This document shows, piece by piece, positions 3,301-40,374 of a stretch of DNA of 51,548 nucleotides (positions are counted from its first letter, which is position 1; each line of letters starts with the position of its first letter). The translations under genes were made by a program, and so were the position numbers. The stretch lies in the sequence record NC_079180.1; one strand, written 5' to 3'. This DNA is from Escherichia phage SKA49. The notes below the pieces were generated by a model. The model did not search any database. It saw nothing but the letters and a program-made list of their open reading frames with translations, and was not told where the DNA came from.

Positions 3301-3508
3301 ATATTGGGATAAAACCCTTTATTTAAATCATTTAGTTTATTAATTAAATGGTCGGTTTTCTGTACATAGGTATTCAGCTGTTTGTGCCAAATACAAACAA
3401 GTTGGCTGCTTCTACAGAACTCCAGTGCTACAAATGTTCGTGCCAATCTGCTGCAATTTATCTCATTTGGCGGGGTAATATTGTATTAGGTTGGTACGTC
3501 ATTATTTC

Positions 3509-3529
3509 GATTAGTTGCATGTGAATAAG
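3509..3529 (+). promoter_or_regulatory. degenerate promoter-like motif GATTAGTTGCATGTGAATAAG
   Basis: Partial match to the ACATTAGTTGGATGTGAAG consensus, upstream of the early gene cluster. Confidence 0.3.
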
Positions 3530-3717
3530 ACCAAATCTCTGTAAATTCTGTGACAGATTTTAGAGAGATTATGTCTCCAAGCTAATCATTGTAGTTTTTA
3601 GACACTTTGTGTGTCACATATATAGCCTGTGAAAAACGTGTGGTATATTGCTGGATTGCGACGCGCCCACCAGACTAGGAAGTCACTGACGGCGGCACAC
3701 ACAGGAATACTATATAA

Positions 3718-3780
3718 CTCCCTACAACTTTAAGGTGGATTGAGGTAAGACAAGACCTCCACAATCGTTCTGTAGGGAGT
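3718..3780 (+). promoter_or_regulatory. 9-bp inverted repeat (CTCCCTACA ... TGTAGGGAG) with nested GTGGA/TCCAC stem, upstream of first early gene
   Basis: Perfect reverse-complement arms 3718-3726 and 3772-3780 separated by 45 nt; candidate RNA structure or processing site. Confidence 0.35.
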
Positions 3781-3804
3781 TTTCCTTTAACTTTGGAGAA
3801 TAAA

Positions 3805-4053
3805 ATGGATACTGTGATTAAAGCTGCTTGTTTCAAAGACCTGCAAGATGGTCAAATCTTCACTGTTCGTTCTGTGAAGTGGATTAAAGTAAATGAGTCA
3901 GATAAGTACAATGCTGTAAAGTTCTTTGATTCAAGCAAAGCATGTACTTTTAGCGACAATATTGTTGTCAATATTGAAGTCGAATTAATTCCTGATGACG
4001 GAGATGTTGAAGCAACTCTTCGTAACACTGCTGGATATAACGAGGGATTCTAA
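3805..4053 (+). CDS. hypothetical early protein (82 aa)
   Basis: ATG with GGAG RBS 6 nt upstream; track ORF begins at TTG 3793. Confidence 0.6.
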   Translation: MDTVIKAACFKDLQDGQIFTVRSVKWIKVNESDKYNAVKFFDSSKACTFSDNIVVNIEVELIPDDGDVEATLRNTAGYNEGF

Positions 4054-4296
4054 ATGAATTATGCTTTATATCAATACATCAATCGCGATGGTGTTGTTTC
4101 TCATGCTTTGGTTAATACTGAAACCAGAGCAATAATGTTGGCAGACTTAATATCTTATACATCACTTTACGAAAACAAGCTGGTGTGGAATAATGCCGCA
4201 TATCCTGAATATGTTTGGCAAGCAATCCAGAATGACAAACATCACAAAGTTGTGGCAACTGCCACACATCCAGATTTCTTGAAAGTAAGAGGTTAA
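4054..4296 (+). CDS. hypothetical early protein (80 aa)
   Basis: ATG abuts upstream stop (TAAATG); track ORF. Confidence 0.55.
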   Translation: MNYALYQYINRDGVVSHALVNTETRAIMLADLISYTSLYENKLVWNNAAYPEYVWQAIQNDKHHKVVATATHPDFLKVRG

Positions 4297-4298
4297 CA

Positions 4299-4487
4299 AT
4301 GGACTTCATCGTCTACTTTAAGTTAAATGGTGTGGAGCAAAGATTGTACTTCAATTCTTTACTTCGTTTGCAACAGTGGGCGGAGAAGTTTATTGGTTAC
4401 GACTTTGAATACATCAACGCATGTACACCTGACGAACATGAGGAAATCGTGTTCAGTTCATTAAACCAGATTCTGGAGGCCAAATGA
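4299..4487 (+). CDS. hypothetical early protein (62 aa)
   Basis: AAGAGG RBS before ATG; track ORF. Confidence 0.55.
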   Translation: MDFIVYFKLNGVEQRLYFNSLLRLQQWAEKFIGYDFEYINACTPDEHEEIVFSSLNQILEAK

Positions 4488-4648
4488 AGTTGTCCCACTT
4501 CAAATCTTTTAAATCCTGTGTTTACGCTGCTGCCTATGGCAGTTCAAACAAACGTTTGAAGAAAATGGCTAAAGAAGCAAATCCACGTATGCCTGCTCGT
4601 GAAGTGGCAAGACGTGTTAAATCAATTTACGAATATCTGGAGTATTAA
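4484..4648 (+). CDS. hypothetical small basic protein (54 aa)
   Basis: ATG overlaps upstream stop (ATGA); GGAGG RBS; below the 60-aa track cutoff, found by reading. Confidence 0.4.
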   Translation: MKLSHFKSFKSCVYAAAYGSSNKRLKKMAKEANPRMPAREVARRVKSIYEYLEY

Positions 4649-30528: not shown

Positions 30529-31002
30529 ATGCCAAAGCAAGATTGGTCTATTAATACTGGTGAAGCATATGCAGGTGAACAATACGGCCTGGCTACCACC
30601 AACTCCCAGCGCCTGACTTACGTTGCCGAAGAAGAAATGGCAAACTTTGGTCTGGCTGTTGTTCAAGGCACGGCATCTAATCAGGTTAAACCTGGTATTG
30701 GAGCAGACGGTACTGTTCTGGGCGTTACTATGCGCCAGCTTAACATCGAATCTGCCACCCGTCCTGGTGACGGTACTGTTGCAATCAAAGTTGGTTGGCC
30801 TCTGGGTGTTATGCTGTCTGGCCCAATCATGGTCAAACTGAAAGCCGCAATCACCGACAAGAACATTGGTGTATCCACTAAAGGTGAATTTGGTGGCGTT
30901 GGTGCTGGCTATACTAAAGCAACCAACCTGACTGCACTGCGTTATCCGGCTTCCGCTGGCGATGTTGTTCCGGTCATGATTAACGTAGTCCCAAAGCCGT
31001 AA
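30529..31002 (+). CDS. head decoration protein-like structural protein (157 aa; zero-frame product)
   Basis: Host-optimal codons; position between scaffold and major capsid genes as for lambda D. Confidence 0.6.
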   Translation: MPKQDWSINTGEAYAGEQYGLATTNSQRLTYVAEEEMANFGLAVVQGTASNQVKPGIGADGTVLGVTMRQLNIESATRPGDGTVAIKVGWPLGVMLSGPIMVKLKAAITDKNIGVSTKGEFGGVGAGYTKATNLTALRYPASAGDVVPVMINVVPKP

Positions 31003-31295
31003 CGCCACCTCCATCTCCTACAGTATCTGCTGTAGCAGGAGTTGTAACTGCTGACGCATCTGTATCTGATGCTACTGTAACTGTGGACAAGCTGTTTAAG
31101 TTTGAGAACTCCACAGCAACAGACTATAACTTCACTGTTACGCCTCCCGTGACTGGTGTTTCTGTGGCGGCAAACGGCACTGTGACTGTTCTGAATGAAA
31201 CGACTACTGATACCTCTGCCACGATTAAGGCAACAAACAAAACAACCTCCAGCGTGACTGCAACTAAAGAAATTGCTATTACGCCGAAGTCTTAA
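30529..31295 (+). CDS. predicted -1 frameshift product: decoration protein fused to C-terminal Ig-like domain (about 254 aa)
   Basis: Slippery heptamer C_CCA_AAG at 30990-30996; -1 frame stop TAA 30981-30983 immediately upstream; -1 frame open to 31295 with no start codon or RBS before GTG 31083; Pro-rich linker TPPPSPT then beta-rich T/S/V domain; frame confirmed against minus-strand track ORFs. Confidence 0.55.
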
Positions 31296-34103: not shown

Positions 34104-35552
34104 ATGGCAATTCCAATTTCCGATATCATCCAGGTCAACATTGCGGTATCTCCGAATGCTGTTGCCGTGGAAGGTTTTGGTCCTCTGCTCTTTCTTTCGA
34201 AGGAGTTTAAACCGACTGCTGCCGAAGTAGTTCCTGTTCGTCAATATACGAGCATGGCTGCGGTGTCTGCGGATTTCCCATCCGGTGAAATCTATAATGC
34301 AGCTTTGGCGTGGTATTCTCAGAAACCTACTCCGAAATATTTCCTGGTTGGTGCAATCACTCATGAAGACGTGGTTCCTGCAACTGCTGGCACTATCACT
34401 GCTTCTACTGCTGCAAACCTGGACGACATTAAGGCTGTAACCTCTGGTGTAATTTCCATCAACATCAACGGCGTTGATATGCACACTGGTGCTATCAACT
34501 TCTCTACCGTAACAGACTTTGCTGGTGCTGCTTCTGCAATGACTGCTGCATTCGTGACTGCTGGCATTCCTGCAACCGTCTCCCAGACTACTGGTGTGTT
34601 CAAAATCACTACCAACCTGACTGGCGACACTGCTGTTATCGGTGATGTATACGGCACTGCTGCAAGTGCTTTCAAGCTGGATGCAAACTCAAGTCCAGTA
34701 TTTGCCCAGGGTAAAGACGAACAGTCTATTGGTTCTGACCTGTCTGCAATTCTGAACTCCACTTACAACTTCTTCTTCGTTGCTATTGACCGTAAGTACC
34801 GCGGCGGCGCCTCTGGTGATAACCAGATGACTGTTGCTAAGTGGGCAGAAGCGAACGAGAAAGTGTTCGGCTGGGCTGACAGTGACCCGCAGATTCTGGT
34901 TGTTGGTGCAGAGTCTAGCTTTAAGCGCGCCAAAGAACAGAACCTCCAGCGTACCTTGCTGGTTTATGATGCGTCTGATAATGGCGACGAATATCCAGAA
35001 ATCTCCATCCTTGGTCGTGCATCAACTGTCAACTTCAACGTTGCAAACTCTTCGCTTGTCCTGGCGTTCAAACAGGGTCCGGCTATCAAGACTGCTGACC
35101 TGTCTCCGAACCAGCTTGCTGCCCTCGAACGTGTAAATGGTAACGCATTCATCAACGTTGGTGGGAACACTATGTTCTACAACGGCAAGATGGCTGACGG
35201 CACTTGGTTCGATACCGTTCAGGGTGTGTCTTGGCTGACCTCCAAGATTCGTGCGAACGTGTTCAACCTGTTCTATACCTCCACTACCAAGATTCCTTGG
35301 ACGGATACCGGCGTTGCCCTGGTCAACCAGCAAGTAACTCTGGCACTGGAACTGGCTGTAACCAATGGTCTGATTGCCCCAGGTTACGACAATGAAGGCA
35401 ACTTCTACCCAGATGGCTACAAAGTCTTGTCTACCGACTTGGCTCTGATGCAATCTCAGAAAGGTGCTCGAATCTGGGAAGGTACTTCCTTCATTGCAAT
35501 TGGCTCTGGCGCATTGCAGGGTGCAGTTATCTCCGGCAACTTCGTTCAGTAA
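34104..35552 (+). CDS. tail sheath protein
   Basis: 482 aa, host-optimal codons, directly before tube, chaperone and tape-measure genes. Confidence 0.6.
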   Translation: MAIPISDIIQVNIAVSPNAVAVEGFGPLLFLSKEFKPTAAEVVPVRQYTSMAAVSADFPSGEIYNAALAWYSQKPTPKYFLVGAITHEDVVPATAGTITASTAANLDDIKAVTSGVISININGVDMHTGAINFSTVTDFAGAASAMTAAFVTAGIPATVSQTTGVFKITTNLTGDTAVIGDVYGTAASAFKLDANSSPVFAQGKDEQSIGSDLSAILNSTYNFFFVAIDRKYRGGASGDNQMTVAKWAEANEKVFGWADSDPQILVVGAESSFKRAKEQNLQRTLLVYDASDNGDEYPEISILGRASTVNFNVANSSLVLAFKQGPAIKTADLSPNQLAALERVNGNAFINVGGNTMFYNGKMADGTWFDTVQGVSWLTSKIRANVFNLFYTSTTKIPWTDTGVALVNQQVTLALELAVTNGLIAPGYDNEGNFYPDGYKVLSTDLALMQSQKGARIWEGTSFIAIGSGALQGAVISGNFVQ

Positions 35553-35563
35553 GGGTGCGATAA

Positions 35564-36019
35564 GTGAAACAATATTCTTTCTATAATACCGACCTCATTA
35601 TCGACGGTGCTCGCGTAGATGGTTTTACCTCTGGTAACGCCATCATCACTGCTCGTCGTAATGCACCTCAGCACCTGCCAGTGATTGACGCGTATGGTAA
35701 GTTGGCTGTGGCTACCACGGCTGACTTGTCTGGTACTATTACGTTCCCGCTTCTGCAAACCGCAGACTGGAACGAAATCCTATACAACCGTGCTCAGCTC
35801 ACTCAGGCAACTGGCTTGTCTGGCAATAAATCTTTGTGGACTCCACTACAGATTCAAATTGTTGACAAGATGGGTGATGTGCTGGTCAATGGTGTAAACG
35901 GCGCTATCTTGCAGCAACCTGCAATTCAGCGTGGTGTGTCCTTCACGTCTAACGTGTGGTCTATCTTTGTAGAGCGCCTCCAGATTAAGACTGGTTCTTA
36001 TCCGGAAATTGGCGTTTAA
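35564..36019 (+). CDS. tail tube protein (GTG start)
   Basis: 151 aa between sheath and chaperone genes. Confidence 0.55.
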   Translation: MKQYSFYNTDLIIDGARVDGFTSGNAIITARRNAPQHLPVIDAYGKLAVATTADLSGTITFPLLQTADWNEILYNRAQLTQATGLSGNKSLWTPLQIQIVDKMGDVLVNGVNGAILQQPAIQRGVSFTSNVWSIFVERLQIKTGSYPEIGV

Positions 36020-36030
36020 TTGGAGTAAGT

Positions 36031-36489
36031 ATGGCTTGTGAATTGCTTCAACGTGAATTCACAAACTCCAAAGGCGAAACAGTGTTAGTCGTTGTTCGAC
36101 AATTGTCGGCTTCGGCTGCACTGTCTCTTCACGCGGAGTTGGTAAGCAAGTTAGGCTCACGAGTATTTCCATTCATCGAAGGTAAATATAACTTCGCTGA
36201 TATTATATACTTGATGCAGCAAGTAGAGCATACCGTATTCACAGAATTGTTTAAGCGTGTTATCAGCATGCACTCGTCCATAGACGGACAAGAAATCAAA
36301 CCTGCATTATATGATATGCAGTTCAATGGCGAATTGATGTTGTCTTGCCATGTCTTTGCTTTCGTGCTCGAAGCAAACTTCCTTGATTTTTTCAAGCAAG
36401 GGCTCGAAATCCACGAACAGAGACGATTGGAGGCGGAGGAAGCATCCAAGCTGGCAGAGCAGAAGAATTCGAGTCCGGAGACAGTTTAG
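36031..36489 (+). CDS. tail assembly chaperone (zero-frame product)
   Basis: Position between tube and tape-measure genes; contains slippery site near 3' end. Confidence 0.55.
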   Translation: MACELLQREFTNSKGETVLVVVRQLSASAALSLHAELVSKLGSRVFPFIEGKYNFADIIYLMQQVEHTVFTELFKRVISMHSSIDGQEIKPALYDMQFNGELMLSCHVFAFVLEANFLDFFKQGLEIHEQRRLEAEEASKLAEQKNSSPETV

Positions 36490-36665
36490 TATCCCTGTTC
36501 CCCGACATAAAATATTTTCTGCATCGTCCTATAATCGAAGACAGTTCTCTCTGCAAGTTACGTGAATTGCAAGATGGAACCTATTCGATTATGGACTTAT
36601 TGCTATTCCACGACATTCTCGATTTGCGTAAGAAACTCGAACCAGTAGATGAAGACAATGGCTAA
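36031..36665 (+). CDS. predicted -1 frameshift product of tail assembly chaperone (G-T / E-E'-like)
   Basis: Slippery heptamer T_TTT_TTC at 36387-36393; -1 frame stop TGA 36384-36386 immediately upstream; -1 frame open for 93 codons to TAA 36663-36665, overlapping the tape-measure start. Confidence 0.5.
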
Positions 36666-39600
36666 TCAAAAAGATTTAATGAAGTTGAGCGTTAATGAGT
36701 TAATTGCATTAGGCTCTCAAAGCGGTCTGACTTTCCATGCTGGTATGAAGAAGTCGCACATGGTTCAACAACTTAGTGCGAGCGCTGCTTCGGGATGGCT
36801 GGATACAAATGCAGAATTAATGGGTGGGTCGTTTGAAGATGACAGTTTAATTACTGAATCTTTGGGCGACTCTTCCATGATTTCAGACGCTGCCCACATT
36901 GCACAAGTGCTTTCAAGTGCTGGCTACACAGAAGCATTTCATGCAGCAATGAATGGCCCAACACACCATGTAGAAGCTGTTCACGCATACATGGAAAGGC
37001 TTGGTGTCAACACAGATGATGTGTGGATGCACATGCCAAAGCCAAATCCGAACTTACCGCAAGGTAGCTTCAACATGCTTAATGCCTATATGCGAGATAC
37101 TTTGCAAGGGCATCAAGATATTATGCCAGAAATCCCAGGCCACTATGCTGGGGATATTATGGCTGAATACTCCACCAACCGTGGAAACATTGCTGACTCA
37201 TATAACTACATGGCTCACATGTATGTTGACCGTGAGCAATACAGCAATCATGAACAATACGCAAGAGACATTAGTCGAGTTGCCAAACGTCTGGAACAAG
37301 AGTTACCCGCAGCCTTTAAGGAAGTTGGGTATACCTCGGCCTCTAATGTAGGAAATAAATCGGCCCCACATATTTCTTACATGGATGCACTTCCTCAGAT
37401 TGGTTCTCCTTCAATTGTTTCTGGCATTGCACATCCTCGTGCACCTCTTAACGCATCTGGACTTCCTCTTGGTTCTTATGGTTCTGGCATAAATCCAGAA
37501 TACTCCCTCACTGCATCATTAACTGGTGGCACTGGTTGGAGTGAACCAAGCAAGGCTTTATATTCCTCTATTAGTGAAGCTGTTAAATCTGCTGCCAAAG
37601 TTTATTCTGGTTCCAAAGGGATGATGAATACTCGTCACGAAGTATCTGACCGTGACATGATTATGGACAGCGCAACTCGCTATACAGATTTGGAAGAAGC
37701 CAGAAGCGGGTACGAAAACCTTCGTTCTGAACTTGCAGATGAACCGGCTTATTCTGCATCGAGTGTTCGAGCTATTCTCGAAAACACTTATGACAAAATG
37801 GATTCCGAACCTGTTCGCATTCCAAAGATGAAGGGAGCATCTCAGCGAGTCGAAAAAGATTCGCAATCAACATCTACAGAATTTACAGCACAACTTGGAG
37901 AGGCCACCAATTGGAACTCTGCAAGAATGCGTCGTGAGGAAATTGCGATTGCAAATATGGATAGTGCTGGATTCCGTGATGTATCAGACTATGGTACAGG
38001 ACGTTCCGAGTCTCCCGTCAGATTCCATGACTTAGAACAGGGCAGCCAAGAGTGGCTAGACTTCCGTAAAAACTATGACATAACTGGTTCAACTGTTGGA
38101 ACTTTCTTAGGAAACAACCCATACACCCGACCTTGGGCGGGAATGATTGACAAGATTGGTCTATCTCGTAGTAAAGAGCACAGCGATTTCACTAAGAAGA
38201 TGTTCGCTGATGGTCACAGGACGGAAGAAGAAGCACGCGCTCGTGTTGGTAAGGAATTTGGATTCGATATCAAACAAACTGGCGCTATAACAAATGACAA
38301 CTATCCCGCCTTCATGTATTCTCCTGATGGTCTTATTGGCGATGATGCCATTTGGGAGCACAAGAATCCGCAAAGGGCTGGTAAGTTTGCTGACCTTCTT
38401 AAAGGCGACCATCCAGATTACATGGACCAAATTCAATTTGGTATGCACGTTTCTGGCCGTTCTCGTGCTTTGTTCTCACAAACCATCAACGACGAAACAC
38501 GTTCACAGTGGATTGAGAAGGACGAAGGATGGTACGAGAGAAACAGAAATCGCCTTGATTCTGTTCTTGGCCGTCTTGATGCTGGGCGAGAGTTTGTTAG
38601 AAACAATGCTGGACTAGACCGAGAAGAACTGATTGCTGGTGCAAGAAGTGCAATGACTGGTGATGGTATCTGGAAGGATATTCGTCAAAGGTCAACTCGT
38701 GGCTACTCTGCCATTGCTGGAACTCCAGAAGACCCATTTATTGGTTCACGTTCTTCGTACAATCCAAAGGCATCATATTCTGACTACCAGCCAAACTTTG
38801 TAATGCACGAGCAAAACTTTCCAGCAACCACAGGAAACGGTGATACTGGAAACGACTCGATGGCATTGTCTGTTAAGAAAGGTATCCTTGCTGCTCAGGA
38901 AGAAAACAGGCAGAAGGGTATTGGTGCAGATGCAGACTTTAATGGCAAAGCCGATTCAATGGGTTGGGACCGCGAAAGATTTGATGCTGCCAATGGCGGT
39001 GGATATTCTGGCGGTGGTGGTGGTCGTGGCGGCAACTTCACAAGCGGTGGCAACTACTATGATGACTACGGTCGCATGGGTGGTTCACTAGCTGCTGGCA
39101 TTGCTGGAGGTAGTATTGGTTCAGCAACCAACGGAGTTATGCAAGCATTAATGGCAACTCCTGCGGGACGTATGGCTGCTGTAGGCATTGGTGCTATTCA
39201 GATTGGCAATGAAGCTGCTGAATACATGAATGACTTTATCGGCAACTCGCTTGATGCTGGCGTGATAAATCCTAATGAATACTCTTCTATGTCGCAAGGC
39301 TTGGAGATGTTAGGACTCAACTCACAACAAGCGGCACGTCTGAATCAAACCACACATAGTGCCTACAACACCATGCTTAACGGCGACCCCAGCGCCGCTG
39401 TGAACATCGTTCGCGGCAGTAGGGGATTGCTCACCATAGGTGATATTCGTGCGACAGGCGGCGACCCTGTGGCCCTAGCTCGCATCATGCAGGAAAGGGG
39501 CAAGGAGCGTGGCTGGAGTCAGGCCCGTATCGCAGGTGCTGCCGAAATGGCTGGCCTGAATGGGATGGCGCGAGCCTACGACCGCACGGAATACAGCCAT

Positions 39601-40374
39601 GAGCAAGCTGGTTCGGTGGTAGAAGCGGGTAGAAACTCTGACTTTGCCGAAGGTATGGCCCAGTCGGAAATGTTGCAGGGAAGCCGCGCACGGATGCTGC
39701 CGAGCTACAACGTGCCACAAAGTGTCTTATCTAACGGTGCTTCCGTATTCGAGGCTGGCAGTGATTCACTTGATAGTGTACGCACTGGATTCAATAATAC
39801 GCGAGAATTTGCTGGAAGTGTTTACGACTTTATCGCCCAGGAAGAATCTGGCGGTCGTGAATATAACAAAGATGGTTCTCGTGTAACAAGTCGTACTGGT
39901 GCTCGTGGGATAATGCAGATTCTTCCTTCAACAGCTCGTGACCCAGGATTTGGAATCAGGCCGTCTGATGGAACTCCGGAAGATGATGCACGAGTTGGTC
40001 GTGAATATTATGACGCAATGTACAAGCGTTATGGCGACCACGAAAAGGCAATGGCTGCTTACACCGATGGTCCTGGAACTGTTGACAAAGCTGTTGATAA
40101 GAATGGGCTGGATTGGCTAACTGCTGTTCCTGTACAAGCACAGAATCGCGTCAAAGCATTCCGTGAATGGGCCAAGTCTTCTCAGACTTTGGAAGAAGGT
40201 GCTACAGGGTTTACTCGCAATGGAATGTCGTACGGTCAAACCCAAACTGTTGTTAATGTTAAGATTGATGCTAAGGTCAACAACCAGACTGCTTCTGCTA
40301 CAGTGGCAATTCCTGGTGGTCAGACTGTGACTCAACAAATGAACATGCACAATGGTGCGCAACAAAGAAGATAA
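36649..40374 (+). CDS. tape-measure-like large virion protein with C-terminal lytic transglycosylase domain
   Basis: Transglycosylase motifs QEESGG, GARGIMQILPSTA, AYTDGPGTV; Gly-rich segment; N-terminal Rho_N-like LSVNELIALGSQSGL; mid-region YqaJ-like motifs ITGSTVG...NPY, EHKNP, DQIQFGMHVSG. Confidence 0.6.
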   Translation: MKTMANQKDLMKLSVNELIALGSQSGLTFHAGMKKSHMVQQLSASAASGWLDTNAELMGGSFEDDSLITESLGDSSMISDAAHIAQVLSSAGYTEAFHAAMNGPTHHVEAVHAYMERLGVNTDDVWMHMPKPNPNLPQGSFNMLNAYMRDTLQGHQDIMPEIPGHYAGDIMAEYSTNRGNIADSYNYMAHMYVDREQYSNHEQYARDISRVAKRLEQELPAAFKEVGYTSASNVGNKSAPHISYMDALPQIGSPSIVSGIAHPRAPLNASGLPLGSYGSGINPEYSLTASLTGGTGWSEPSKALYSSISEAVKSAAKVYSGSKGMMNTRHEVSDRDMIMDSATRYTDLEEARSGYENLRSELADEPAYSASSVRAILENTYDKMDSEPVRIPKMKGASQRVEKDSQSTSTEFTAQLGEATNWNSARMRREEIAIANMDSAGFRDVSDYGTGRSESPVRFHDLEQGSQEWLDFRKNYDITGSTVGTFLGNNPYTRPWAGMIDKIGLSRSKEHSDFTKKMFADGHRTEEEARARVGKEFGFDIKQTGAITNDNYPAFMYSPDGLIGDDAIWEHKNPQRAGKFADLLKGDHPDYMDQIQFGMHVSGRSRALFSQTINDETRSQWIEKDEGWYERNRNRLDSVLGRLDAGREFVRNNAGLDREELIAGARSAMTGDGIWKDIRQRSTRGYSAIAGTPEDPFIGSRSSYNPKASYSDYQPNFVMHEQNFPATTGNGDTGNDSMALSVKKGILAAQEENRQKGIGADADFNGKADSMGWDRERFDAANGGGYSGGGGGRGGNFTSGGNYYDDYGRMGGSLAAGIAGGSIGSATNGVMQALMATPAGRMAAVGIGAIQIGNEAAEYMNDFIGNSLDAGVINPNEYSSMSQGLEMLGLNSQQAARLNQTTHSAYNTMLNGDPSAAVNIVRGSRGLLTIGDIRATGGDPVALARIMQERGKERGWSQARIAGAAEMAGLNGMARAYDRTEYSHEQAGSVVEAGRNSDFAEGMAQSEMLQGSRARMLPSYNVPQSVLSNGASVFEAGSDSLDSVRTGFNNTREFAGSVYDFIAQEESGGREYNKDGSRVTSRTGARGIMQILPSTARDPGFGIRPSDGTPEDDARVGREYYDAMYKRYGDHEKAMAAYTDGPGTVDKAVDKNGLDWLTAVPVQAQNRVKAFREWAKSSQTLEEGATGFTRNGMSYGQTQTVVNVKIDAKVNNQTASATVAIPGGQTVTQQMNMHNGAQQRR

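Follow-up and report, generated by a model that had tools for sequence, protein, structure and literature searches.

The gene for the tail assembly chaperone in Escherichia phage SKA49 very probably yields two proteins, one short and one long, by the kind of slip known from phages lambda and P2. The arrangement of its reading frames, and the preservation of this arrangement in diverged relatives, make a programmed −1 ribosomal frameshift in this gene highly likely, and from the comparisons described below we infer the slippage itself, the efficiency of the slip, and the binding partners of the two protein domains. The window analyzed here is a stretch of 51,548 nucleotides (sequence record NC_079180.1); the tail genes and slip-site features described below are on its plus strand. 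It belongs to a phiEcoM-GJ1-like myophage of the Chaseviridae (Cleopatravirinae, Carltongylesvirus). The region at 35560–36700 shares 95–98% (~97%) identity with phiEcoM-GJ1-group Escherichia phages and matches 79 phage records, with the lowest DNA identity, ~72%, found in Erwinia, Pectobacterium, Yersinia, and Proteus phages.

The chaperone gene and its slip site

In a preliminary description of this DNA, the gene at 36031–36489 was taken to be a tail assembly chaperone gene lying between the tail tube and tape-measure genes. Its flanks are confirmed by Pfam and PHROGs matches and by an SLT domain. Upstream are the tail sheath gene (34104–35552; DUF3383, E = 1.5e-63; phrog_205 'tail sheath', E = 7.9e-99) and the tail tube gene (35564–36019), which matches phrog_280 (E = 2.7e-32) and scores 23.1 bits against KPP10_Orf10, just under the Pfam cutoff of 25; its counterparts are named tail tube protein in the Mangalitsa, 4HA13, PYps, and PP101 records. 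Downstream, at 36658–40374 and with an alternative ATG at 36649, is a tape-measure-like gene whose 1241-aa product carries an SLT transglycosylase domain at the C-terminus. Several relatives' records name the counterpart of this gene tape-measure protein.

The 0-frame open reading frame at 36031–36489 would encode a short, gpG-like product of 152 aa (17.3 kDa). Residues 20–125 match PF21822 (Phage_TAC_15; E = 3.5e-18, 66.8 bits against a gathering threshold of 22), and the product also matches phrog_11820, 'tail assembly chaperone', with an E-value of 7.7e-75. Together with the canonical position of the gene between tube and tape measure, the PF21822 match bears out the identity first proposed for it. 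In the AlphaFold2 model of the short product (mean pLDDT 85), there are two strands at the N-terminus and several helices, and the final helix spans the frameshift site. When this model was compared with the PDB (350,542 chains) using Foldseek, the top match was 5ir0 (ORF19 of a Vibrio PICI-like element; probability 0.97, E = 0.08), and the HK97 tail assembly chaperone, 2ob9, appeared at ranks 4–5 with non-significant scores (E 0.8–1.0, TM-score 0.24–0.40). Foldseek thus returned no significant PDB structural match for the short product, and a PDB sequence search with the fused protein returned nothing relevant. The assignment to the chaperone family rests on Pfam and PHROGs.

Near the 3′ end of this gene, the 0-frame codons CTT GAT TTT TTC AAG place the slippery heptamer T_TTT_TTC at 36387–36393 in the X_XXY_YYZ register. 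A TGA at 36384–36386 closes the −1 frame just 5′ of the heptamer and marks the 5′ edge of the interval within which a productive slip can occur. The coordinates of both elements, and the register, are as first described. The adjacency of the two was also considered as a meaningful feature in itself and was rejected: in relatives, the TGA precedes the heptamer by 3 to 57 nt, and because its position is not conserved, its adjacency here is incidental.

The heptamer by itself is unremarkable in this window, in which 44 in-register X_XXY_YYZ heptamers were counted in open reading frames of at least 100 aa. The −1 frame reaches well beyond the 0-frame stop at two of these 44, namely the 36387 site and a site at 30990, and at the others it is mostly open for fewer than 20 codons. 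Furthermore, T_TTT_TTC is the sole in-register heptamer from the −1 TGA to the 0-frame stop (36387–36489). Eight of the 12 Phe-Phe codon pairs in the window's genes are TTC TTC, and TTT TTC is used solely at the heptamer. In E. coli, H_HH.U_UU.Y heptamers rank among the most efficient −1 motifs and U_UU.C is the second-best tetramer; U_UU.U_UU.C, which is used by IS elements, gives >0.1% shift without any stimulator (PMC4066793).

The site at 30990 deserves a description of its own. There, C_CCA_AAG (30990–30996) is found three codons before the stop of a head cement gene (30529–31002; PF22758), and the −1 frame runs for 99 codons to 31295, specifying a PPPSP linker and a Thr/Val-rich domain. 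In some relatives' records, this domain is a separate 'Ig domain containing protein', and C_CCA_AAG is in register in GJ1, ST32, Y2, and Faunus. The site is likely a second frameshift, which would join the cement protein to an Ig-like domain. Phages are known to append Ig-like domains by frameshifting, a habit that this site fits (PMC5009743).

The −1 frame extension and its conservation

The −1 frame had been described as open for 93 codons to 36665, overlapping the tape-measure start, and this is what we observed. The 93 codons are counted from 36387 and include the stop, which corresponds to 90 new residues after Phe-Phe; the extension itself (36393–36665) comprises 90 codons plus the TAA at 36663–36665, so that its end lies across the tape-measure ATG at 36658 (ATGGCTAA). 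It overlaps the 0 frame to 36489 and extends 176 nt beyond the 0-frame stop, and past 36489 it is the sole coding frame in an apparent 'intergenic' gap. The predicted long, gpGT-like product, join(36031..36392, 36392..36665), has 211 aa and a mass of 23.9 kDa. Its junction needed correction: the residues placed after FLDFF in the preliminary description (...RTEDG) are wrong, and conceptual translation gives ...ANFLDFF-QARARNPRTETIGGGG..., with a predicted junction peptide of ANFLDFFQARARNPRTE.

The core of the extension, a DUF6889-like 'T' domain at 36498–36638 (FPDIKYFLHRPIIEDSSLCKLRELQDGTYSIMDLLLFHDILDLRKKL), matches phrog_4364 with an E-value of 4.9e-18 and is alignable across all of the Chaseviridae compared. 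Against PF21829 (DUF6889), the window's extension scores 20.2 bits (E = 5e-4), which is under the gathering threshold of 23.9. PF21829 was also the only Pfam match for the extensions of eight out of eight relatives, three of which were at or above the cutoff (VPs20, 37.6; ctfzr933, 35.7; Y2, 23.9). We found no mention of DUF6889 in the literature.

Is the extension frame translated? Pairwise differences in the −1 frame were counted by codon position in the stretch 3′ of the 0-frame stop. At the first, second, and third positions, respectively, there were 559, 307, and 1182 differences in the Cleopatravirinae and 483, 239, and 833 in the Nefertitivirinae. The third position is the most variable (3rd > 1st > 2nd), as expected of a frame that is translated and kept by purifying selection.

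For the wider comparison, the locus was taken from 20 relatives that represent at least 12 lineages and both Chaseviridae subfamilies, with protein identity down to ~30%. The set covers Carltongylesvirus, Sabourvirus, Suwonvirus, Loessnervirus, Myducvirus, Faunusvirus, the Yersinia/MLP1 group, Pahsextavirus, Yushanvirus, other Nefertitivirinae (Vibrio, Aeromonas, and Shewanella phages), and one unclassified metagenomic myovirus. Nineteen of the 20 have a slippery heptamer in register, which is TTTTTTC in 18 of them and TTTTTTT in one, the metagenomic relative ctfzr933; Erwinia phage Faunus has an imperfect GTTTTTC (G_TTT_TTC) at the slip site. The −1 frame is open for 77–97 codons from the site in all 20 relatives, and its stop falls within a few bases of the tape-measure start where that start is well placed. 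The Phe-Phe pair is encoded by TTT TTC in 19/19 Chaseviridae relatives, and the codon 5′ of it may specify D, A, or S yet ends in T (GAT, GCT, AGT), the exception being GAG in Faunus. Synonymous sites at the slip site thus appear to be constrained at the nucleotide level, as a slippery site predicts. The preliminary description had held that lack of conservation in relatives would speak against the frameshift; the heptamer, its register, the open −1 frame, and the extension protein all proved to be conserved.

Routes into the −1 frame

How would the ribosome reach the extension? Most ribosomes would read 36031–36489 and produce the 152-aa chaperone, whereas a minority would slip back one base at T_TTT_TTC. 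tRNA-Phe decodes TTT and TTC alike. The tRNA-Phe on TTT in the P site and the tRNA-Phe on TTC in the A site would re-pair with TTT TTT, which would leave both tRNAs on TTT with the first two positions fully paired. Reading would then continue through CAA GCA AGG... to the TAA at 36663–36665, and the 211-aa form would consist of the N-terminal chaperone domain, a Gly-rich linker, and the conserved DUF6889-like domain of ~47 aa. By analogy with lambda gpG/gpGT, both forms would coat the tape-measure protein via the shared domain, and the extra domain of the rare long form would recruit the tube protein. The tube and sheath would then polymerize to the measured length, and neither form of the chaperone would stay in the virion.

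We searched the sequence around the heptamer for a stimulatory RNA. Downstream fold energies, calculated over 107 nt and 53 nt, were no different from those of shuffles (z-scores of −0.69 and −0.08), an RNAalifold consensus of nine Cleopatravirinae gave −2.0 kcal/mol with 0 compensatory pairs, and no common fold was found among 17 sequences. Upstream of the heptamer, there was neither a Shine-Dalgarno-like element nor a GGAGG. A 9-bp helix in the window, formed by GGGCUCGAA (36400–36408) with UUCGAGUCC (36468–36476), begins 6 nt past the heptamer and is unchanged in PM1, 4HA13, PYps4T, and MLP1; it was rejected as a stimulator, since Y2 and Fifi44 have it in disrupted form and Myduc and Faunus lack it, with no compensatory changes. 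The GGG at +7 to +9 is invariant because of dual coding (Gly in frame 0; Arg and then Ala/Gly in frame −1). Its pairing did not exceed that of shuffled controls (0.81 compared with 0.67), and no sequence went beyond its own shuffles. As no stimulator was found, the site looks like a bare low-efficiency heptamer, as in lambda, and it does not fall into the stimulated −1 frameshift type (dnaX/IS911).

Could the shift arise during transcription instead? If an RNA polymerase, either that of the host or a phage T7-like single-subunit enzyme, added one U on the run of six T, the same 211-aa protein (D F F Q A R...) would be made, and because the predicted protein is identical, the comparative evidence is blind to the difference between ribosomal and transcriptional slippage. 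The site is a homopolymer run, which in ctfzr933 has seven T. UUUUUUU is avoided in E. coli genes, possibly owing to slippage (PMC4066793), and for T4-like chaperone genes a non-ribosomal mechanism has been put forward (Vladimirov et al. 2022, as cited in PMC12846349). However, in the Chaseviridae the run has a fixed length of six T before a C, lies in the exact X_XXY_YYZ register, and is never longer, and such a fixed register suits the re-pairing rules of tRNAs better than selection for run length. Efficient polymerase slippage usually needs about 8–9 T, and a run of six, or of five as in Faunus and the Vandenendeviridae (GTTTTT), is short for a polymerase. Because the run is short and fixed in the heptamer register, we consider transcriptional slippage unlikely. 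If it were nevertheless true, the T-run sites of the Chaseviridae, Vandenendeviridae, and Andersonviridae would form a family in which transcription, and not the ribosome as is now assumed, carries out the programmed recoding.

A different picture is given by the database annotation. Not one of the 23 relatives' records inspected has a joined chaperone CDS. Many relatives' records leave a gap of 160–190 nt where the extension lies, and eight of the records inspected, from seven phages, annotate a small separate ORF there, examples being phiEcoM-GJ1 gp61 and ST32 gp65. Several RefSeq/GenBank records would thus make the −1 frame a small gene with a start codon of its own, and a GGAGG-rich stretch upstream of the ATC chosen for GJ1 gp61 also favors this. 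However, what that stretch encodes is the Gly linker, and the Nefertitivirinae lack the stretch. The annotated starts are spread over seven codons (18, 35, 36, 38, 43, 52, and 59), use ATC, CTG, GTG, TTG, or ATG, of which ATC and CTG are non-standard, and mostly cut into the conserved extension domain. In the window, the first ATG/GTG/TTG of the −1 frame is codon 59, which is within the conserved domain and has no Shine-Dalgarno. Y2, Papaline, and Fifi44 each offer a single late TTG (codon 62 or 64; codon 62 in Y2), and the one candidate in 4HA13 is an ATG at codon 67. No conserved start codon for the extension was found among the relatives compared, and the extension is therefore not translatable alone.

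The occurrence of the extension domain in other proteins also argues against a separate gene. A tblastn search with the fusion gave two pieces in different frames in nearly all of the matches listed of 108 phage records. No fused chaperone was found among the close relatives' database proteins, where 46 of 46 matches were 0-frame products of 135–159 aa, and a HMMER search with the extension as the query matched mostly fragments of 35–110 aa. Elsewhere, the domain is fused in frame to TAC_15: the metagenomic protein P0074 (194 aa) carries PF21822 (E = 5e-11) and PF21829 (E = 2.5e-12) in a single frame, and a second in-frame PF21822 and PF21829 fusion, P0077, is 59% identical to it. These two proteins have the same two domains in the same order as the predicted long product and are likewise joined at an ...NF.xFF motif. 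They differ from it in being encoded in a single frame, with TTC TTC read in P0074, whose junction codons, GTG TTC TTC, are non-slippery. A separate 171-aa TAC_15 gene is found directly upstream of the P0074 gene, so that in the P0074 phage each of the two forms, short and long, appears to have a gene of its own. Such a two-gene supply supports the need for both forms and also the view that slippery codons are retained only by genes whose two parts are in different frames. Altogether, we regard a separate small gene at the extension as very improbable.

That the open −1 frame is a mere relic and the 152-aa protein alone is made is most unlikely, since, common as in-register heptamers are in the window and even with no stimulatory element found, the extension is under protein-level purifying selection and is still open in all of the relatives at ~30% identity, where a relic would have gathered stop codons, and the end of the frame is in every case tied to the tape-measure start.

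Comparison with known systems

Programmed −1 ribosomal frameshifting is therefore the reading that we prefer. Our literature search found no earlier report of a chaperone frameshift in the Chaseviridae or phiEcoM-GJ1 and no report of two chaperone products in any Chaseviridae phage. The frameshift would leave the understanding of the mechanism unchanged; the mechanism is ordinary and would not surprise a specialist. Its main value is in annotation, as a recognized frameshift corrects records that have a gap or a 'hypothetical protein' with an arbitrary start, and phages of the Chaseviridae have been characterized as candidates for the biocontrol or therapy of E. coli, Erwinia, Pectobacterium, Aeromonas, and others. 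It also suggests that the role of DUF6889 and phrog_4364 is to form the C-terminal domain that a frameshift adds to TAC_15-type chaperones, and among myophages with DUF3383-type sheaths, T-run chaperone frameshifts would now be known from a wider phylogenetic range.

By its sequence features, the chaperone site would be a conserved tail-chaperone frameshift of the Xu et al. (2004) type. Two overlapping frames lie between the tube and tape-measure genes, an in-register slippery sequence lies inside the frame overlap, the arrangement is kept in diverged relatives, and the downstream frame has no translation start of its own. The phenomenon has been reviewed in PMC5009743 (Levin et al. 1993; Xu et al. 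2004, 2013, 2014). In lambda, gpG binds the tape measure, as does gpGT with its G part; the T domain is what binds the major tail protein, and the gpG:gpGT ratio of ~30:1 matters (PMC5009743).

Several features are shared with lambda gpG/gpGT. In both, the gene lies between the tail tube or major tail gene and the tape measure, with a −1 slip on an X_XXY_YYZ heptamer near its 3′ end; an abundant short product and a rare long one, which here are predicted, have the N-terminal domain in common; the extension runs up to the tape-measure start; and a strong stimulatory RNA is unneeded. The lambda heptamer is G_GGA_AAG. Unlike lambda, the present phage has T_TTT_TTC, its chaperone domains are Phage_TAC_15 and DUF6889-like, and it is a contractile-tailed myovirus with a DUF3383 sheath. 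Phage P2, with its E and E+E′ products, is likewise contractile-tailed, with the chaperone gene between the tube and the tape measure. Its slip heptamer is T-rich, T_TTT_TTG, and differs from the one here in the last base. The likeness to lambda G/GT and P2 E/E+E′ drawn in the preliminary description thus holds for the mechanism and gene order and stops short of sequence-family membership, because neither the short nor the fused protein matched the Pfam families of lambda G/T or P2 E/E′, with PF21822 and PF21829 being the only matches at E ≤ 0.1. The P2 frameshift is cited as 2–3 fold more efficient than that of lambda (Christie et al. 2002, as cited in PMC5009743).

The closest published case is the predicted frameshift of the Vandenendeviridae and Andersonviridae. 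A 2025 analysis of Pseudomonas phage Adele (Pakpunavirus) inferred a −1 frameshift at a conserved GTTTTT in these two families, in which records routinely show a gap or a wrongly named hypothetical protein in place of the downstream piece; the Chaseviridae chaperone locus was outside its scope, and its sole mention of the family concerns tail fibers (PMC12846349). As in those families, the −1 frame here is open in every genome and the slip site is a run of T, with Faunus having GTTTTTC. The tube family, KPP10_Orf10, is shared as well; Pfam named it after the pakpunavirus KPP10, and the match here is below the cutoff. On the other hand, the slip site is G_TTT_TT in the Vandenendeviridae and Andersonviridae, whereas the Chaseviridae have the full T_TTT_TTC.

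A candidate second frameshift in the head cement gene

Besides the probable −1 frameshift of the chaperone gene, the phage likely has a second one in its head cement/decoration gene (PF22758, Phage_cement), in a candidate region at 30529-31295 with the heptamer C_CCA_AAG at 30990-30996. The heptamer lies in register at the 3′ end of the gene (...GTC CCA AAG CCG TAA), and the −1 frame past it stays open for 99 codons to a TAA at 31293-31295, immediately upstream of the major capsid gene. This extension codes for a PPPSP linker together with a ~70-aa domain. In the records of ST32, Y2, and SSEM1, the domain appears as a gene product of its own, named "Ig domain containing protein"; the phiEcoM-GJ1 record leaves a 348-nt gap at the corresponding place. 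The heptamer is kept in register in GJ1, ST32, Y2, and Faunus. The extension is apparently absent from some relatives, namely PYps4T, Fifi44, PP101, and Papaline.

Nuclease domain of the tape-measure-like protein

The product of the tape-measure-like gene (36658-40374) contains a YqaJ-type PD-(D/E)XK nuclease domain (PF09588, E = 1.9e-13) at residues ~468-604 of the 1241-aa ORF starting at 36649, with the RecE-like exonuclease phrog_434 as a further match. Judged from the sequence, the SPDG...WEHK motif of this domain is apparently intact, and the protein also carries a C-terminal SLT lytic transglycosylase domain. Nuclease domains are not commonly known from tape-measure or ejected proteins, and none of the titles and abstracts retrieved showed an evident link between YqaJ and a tape-measure protein. 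In the record of one relative, Aeromonas phage LA93P1, the entire tape-measure-like gene is named "exonuclease".

One host label among the related records seems questionable for an enterobacterial phage of the Chaseviridae. The stated host of "Staphylococcus phage Pel53" (PP952070.1) is Staphylococcus hyicus, and its tail module is 95% identical to those of phiEcoM-GJ1-type E. coli myophages.

The chaperone extension and its counterparts in other phages

Downstream of the chaperone heptamer T_TTT_TTC (36387-36393), a 9-bp helix is predicted between 36400-36408 (GGGCUCGAA) and 36468-36476 (UUCGAGUCC). It begins 6 nt 3′ of the heptamer, at the distance typical of frameshift stimulators, and is identical in PM1, 4HA13, PYps4T, and MLP1. 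A search for covariation among the relatives gave this helix no support, and fold energies downstream of the heptamer did not differ from those of shuffled sequences.

In RefSeq, the chaperone extension is annotated as gp61 of phiEcoM-GJ1 (3386-3607 of locus L001), with ATC as its first codon, and as gp65 of ST32 (2436-2606 of locus L003), with CTG, neither of which is an accepted start codon. Evidently, the annotators recognized the coding potential and had no start to assign.

The metagenomic phage contig ERZ25070720:ctg115445l (ENA; locus L021) carries two adjacent TAC_15 genes at 3493-4585; the next gene is Dit-like and not an obvious tape measure. The shorter encodes 171 aa and the longer 194 aa, with DUF6889 carried in frame across a non-slippery TTC TTC junction. 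This phage thus seems to encode each chaperone form, short and long, in a gene of its own instead of relying on frameshifting.
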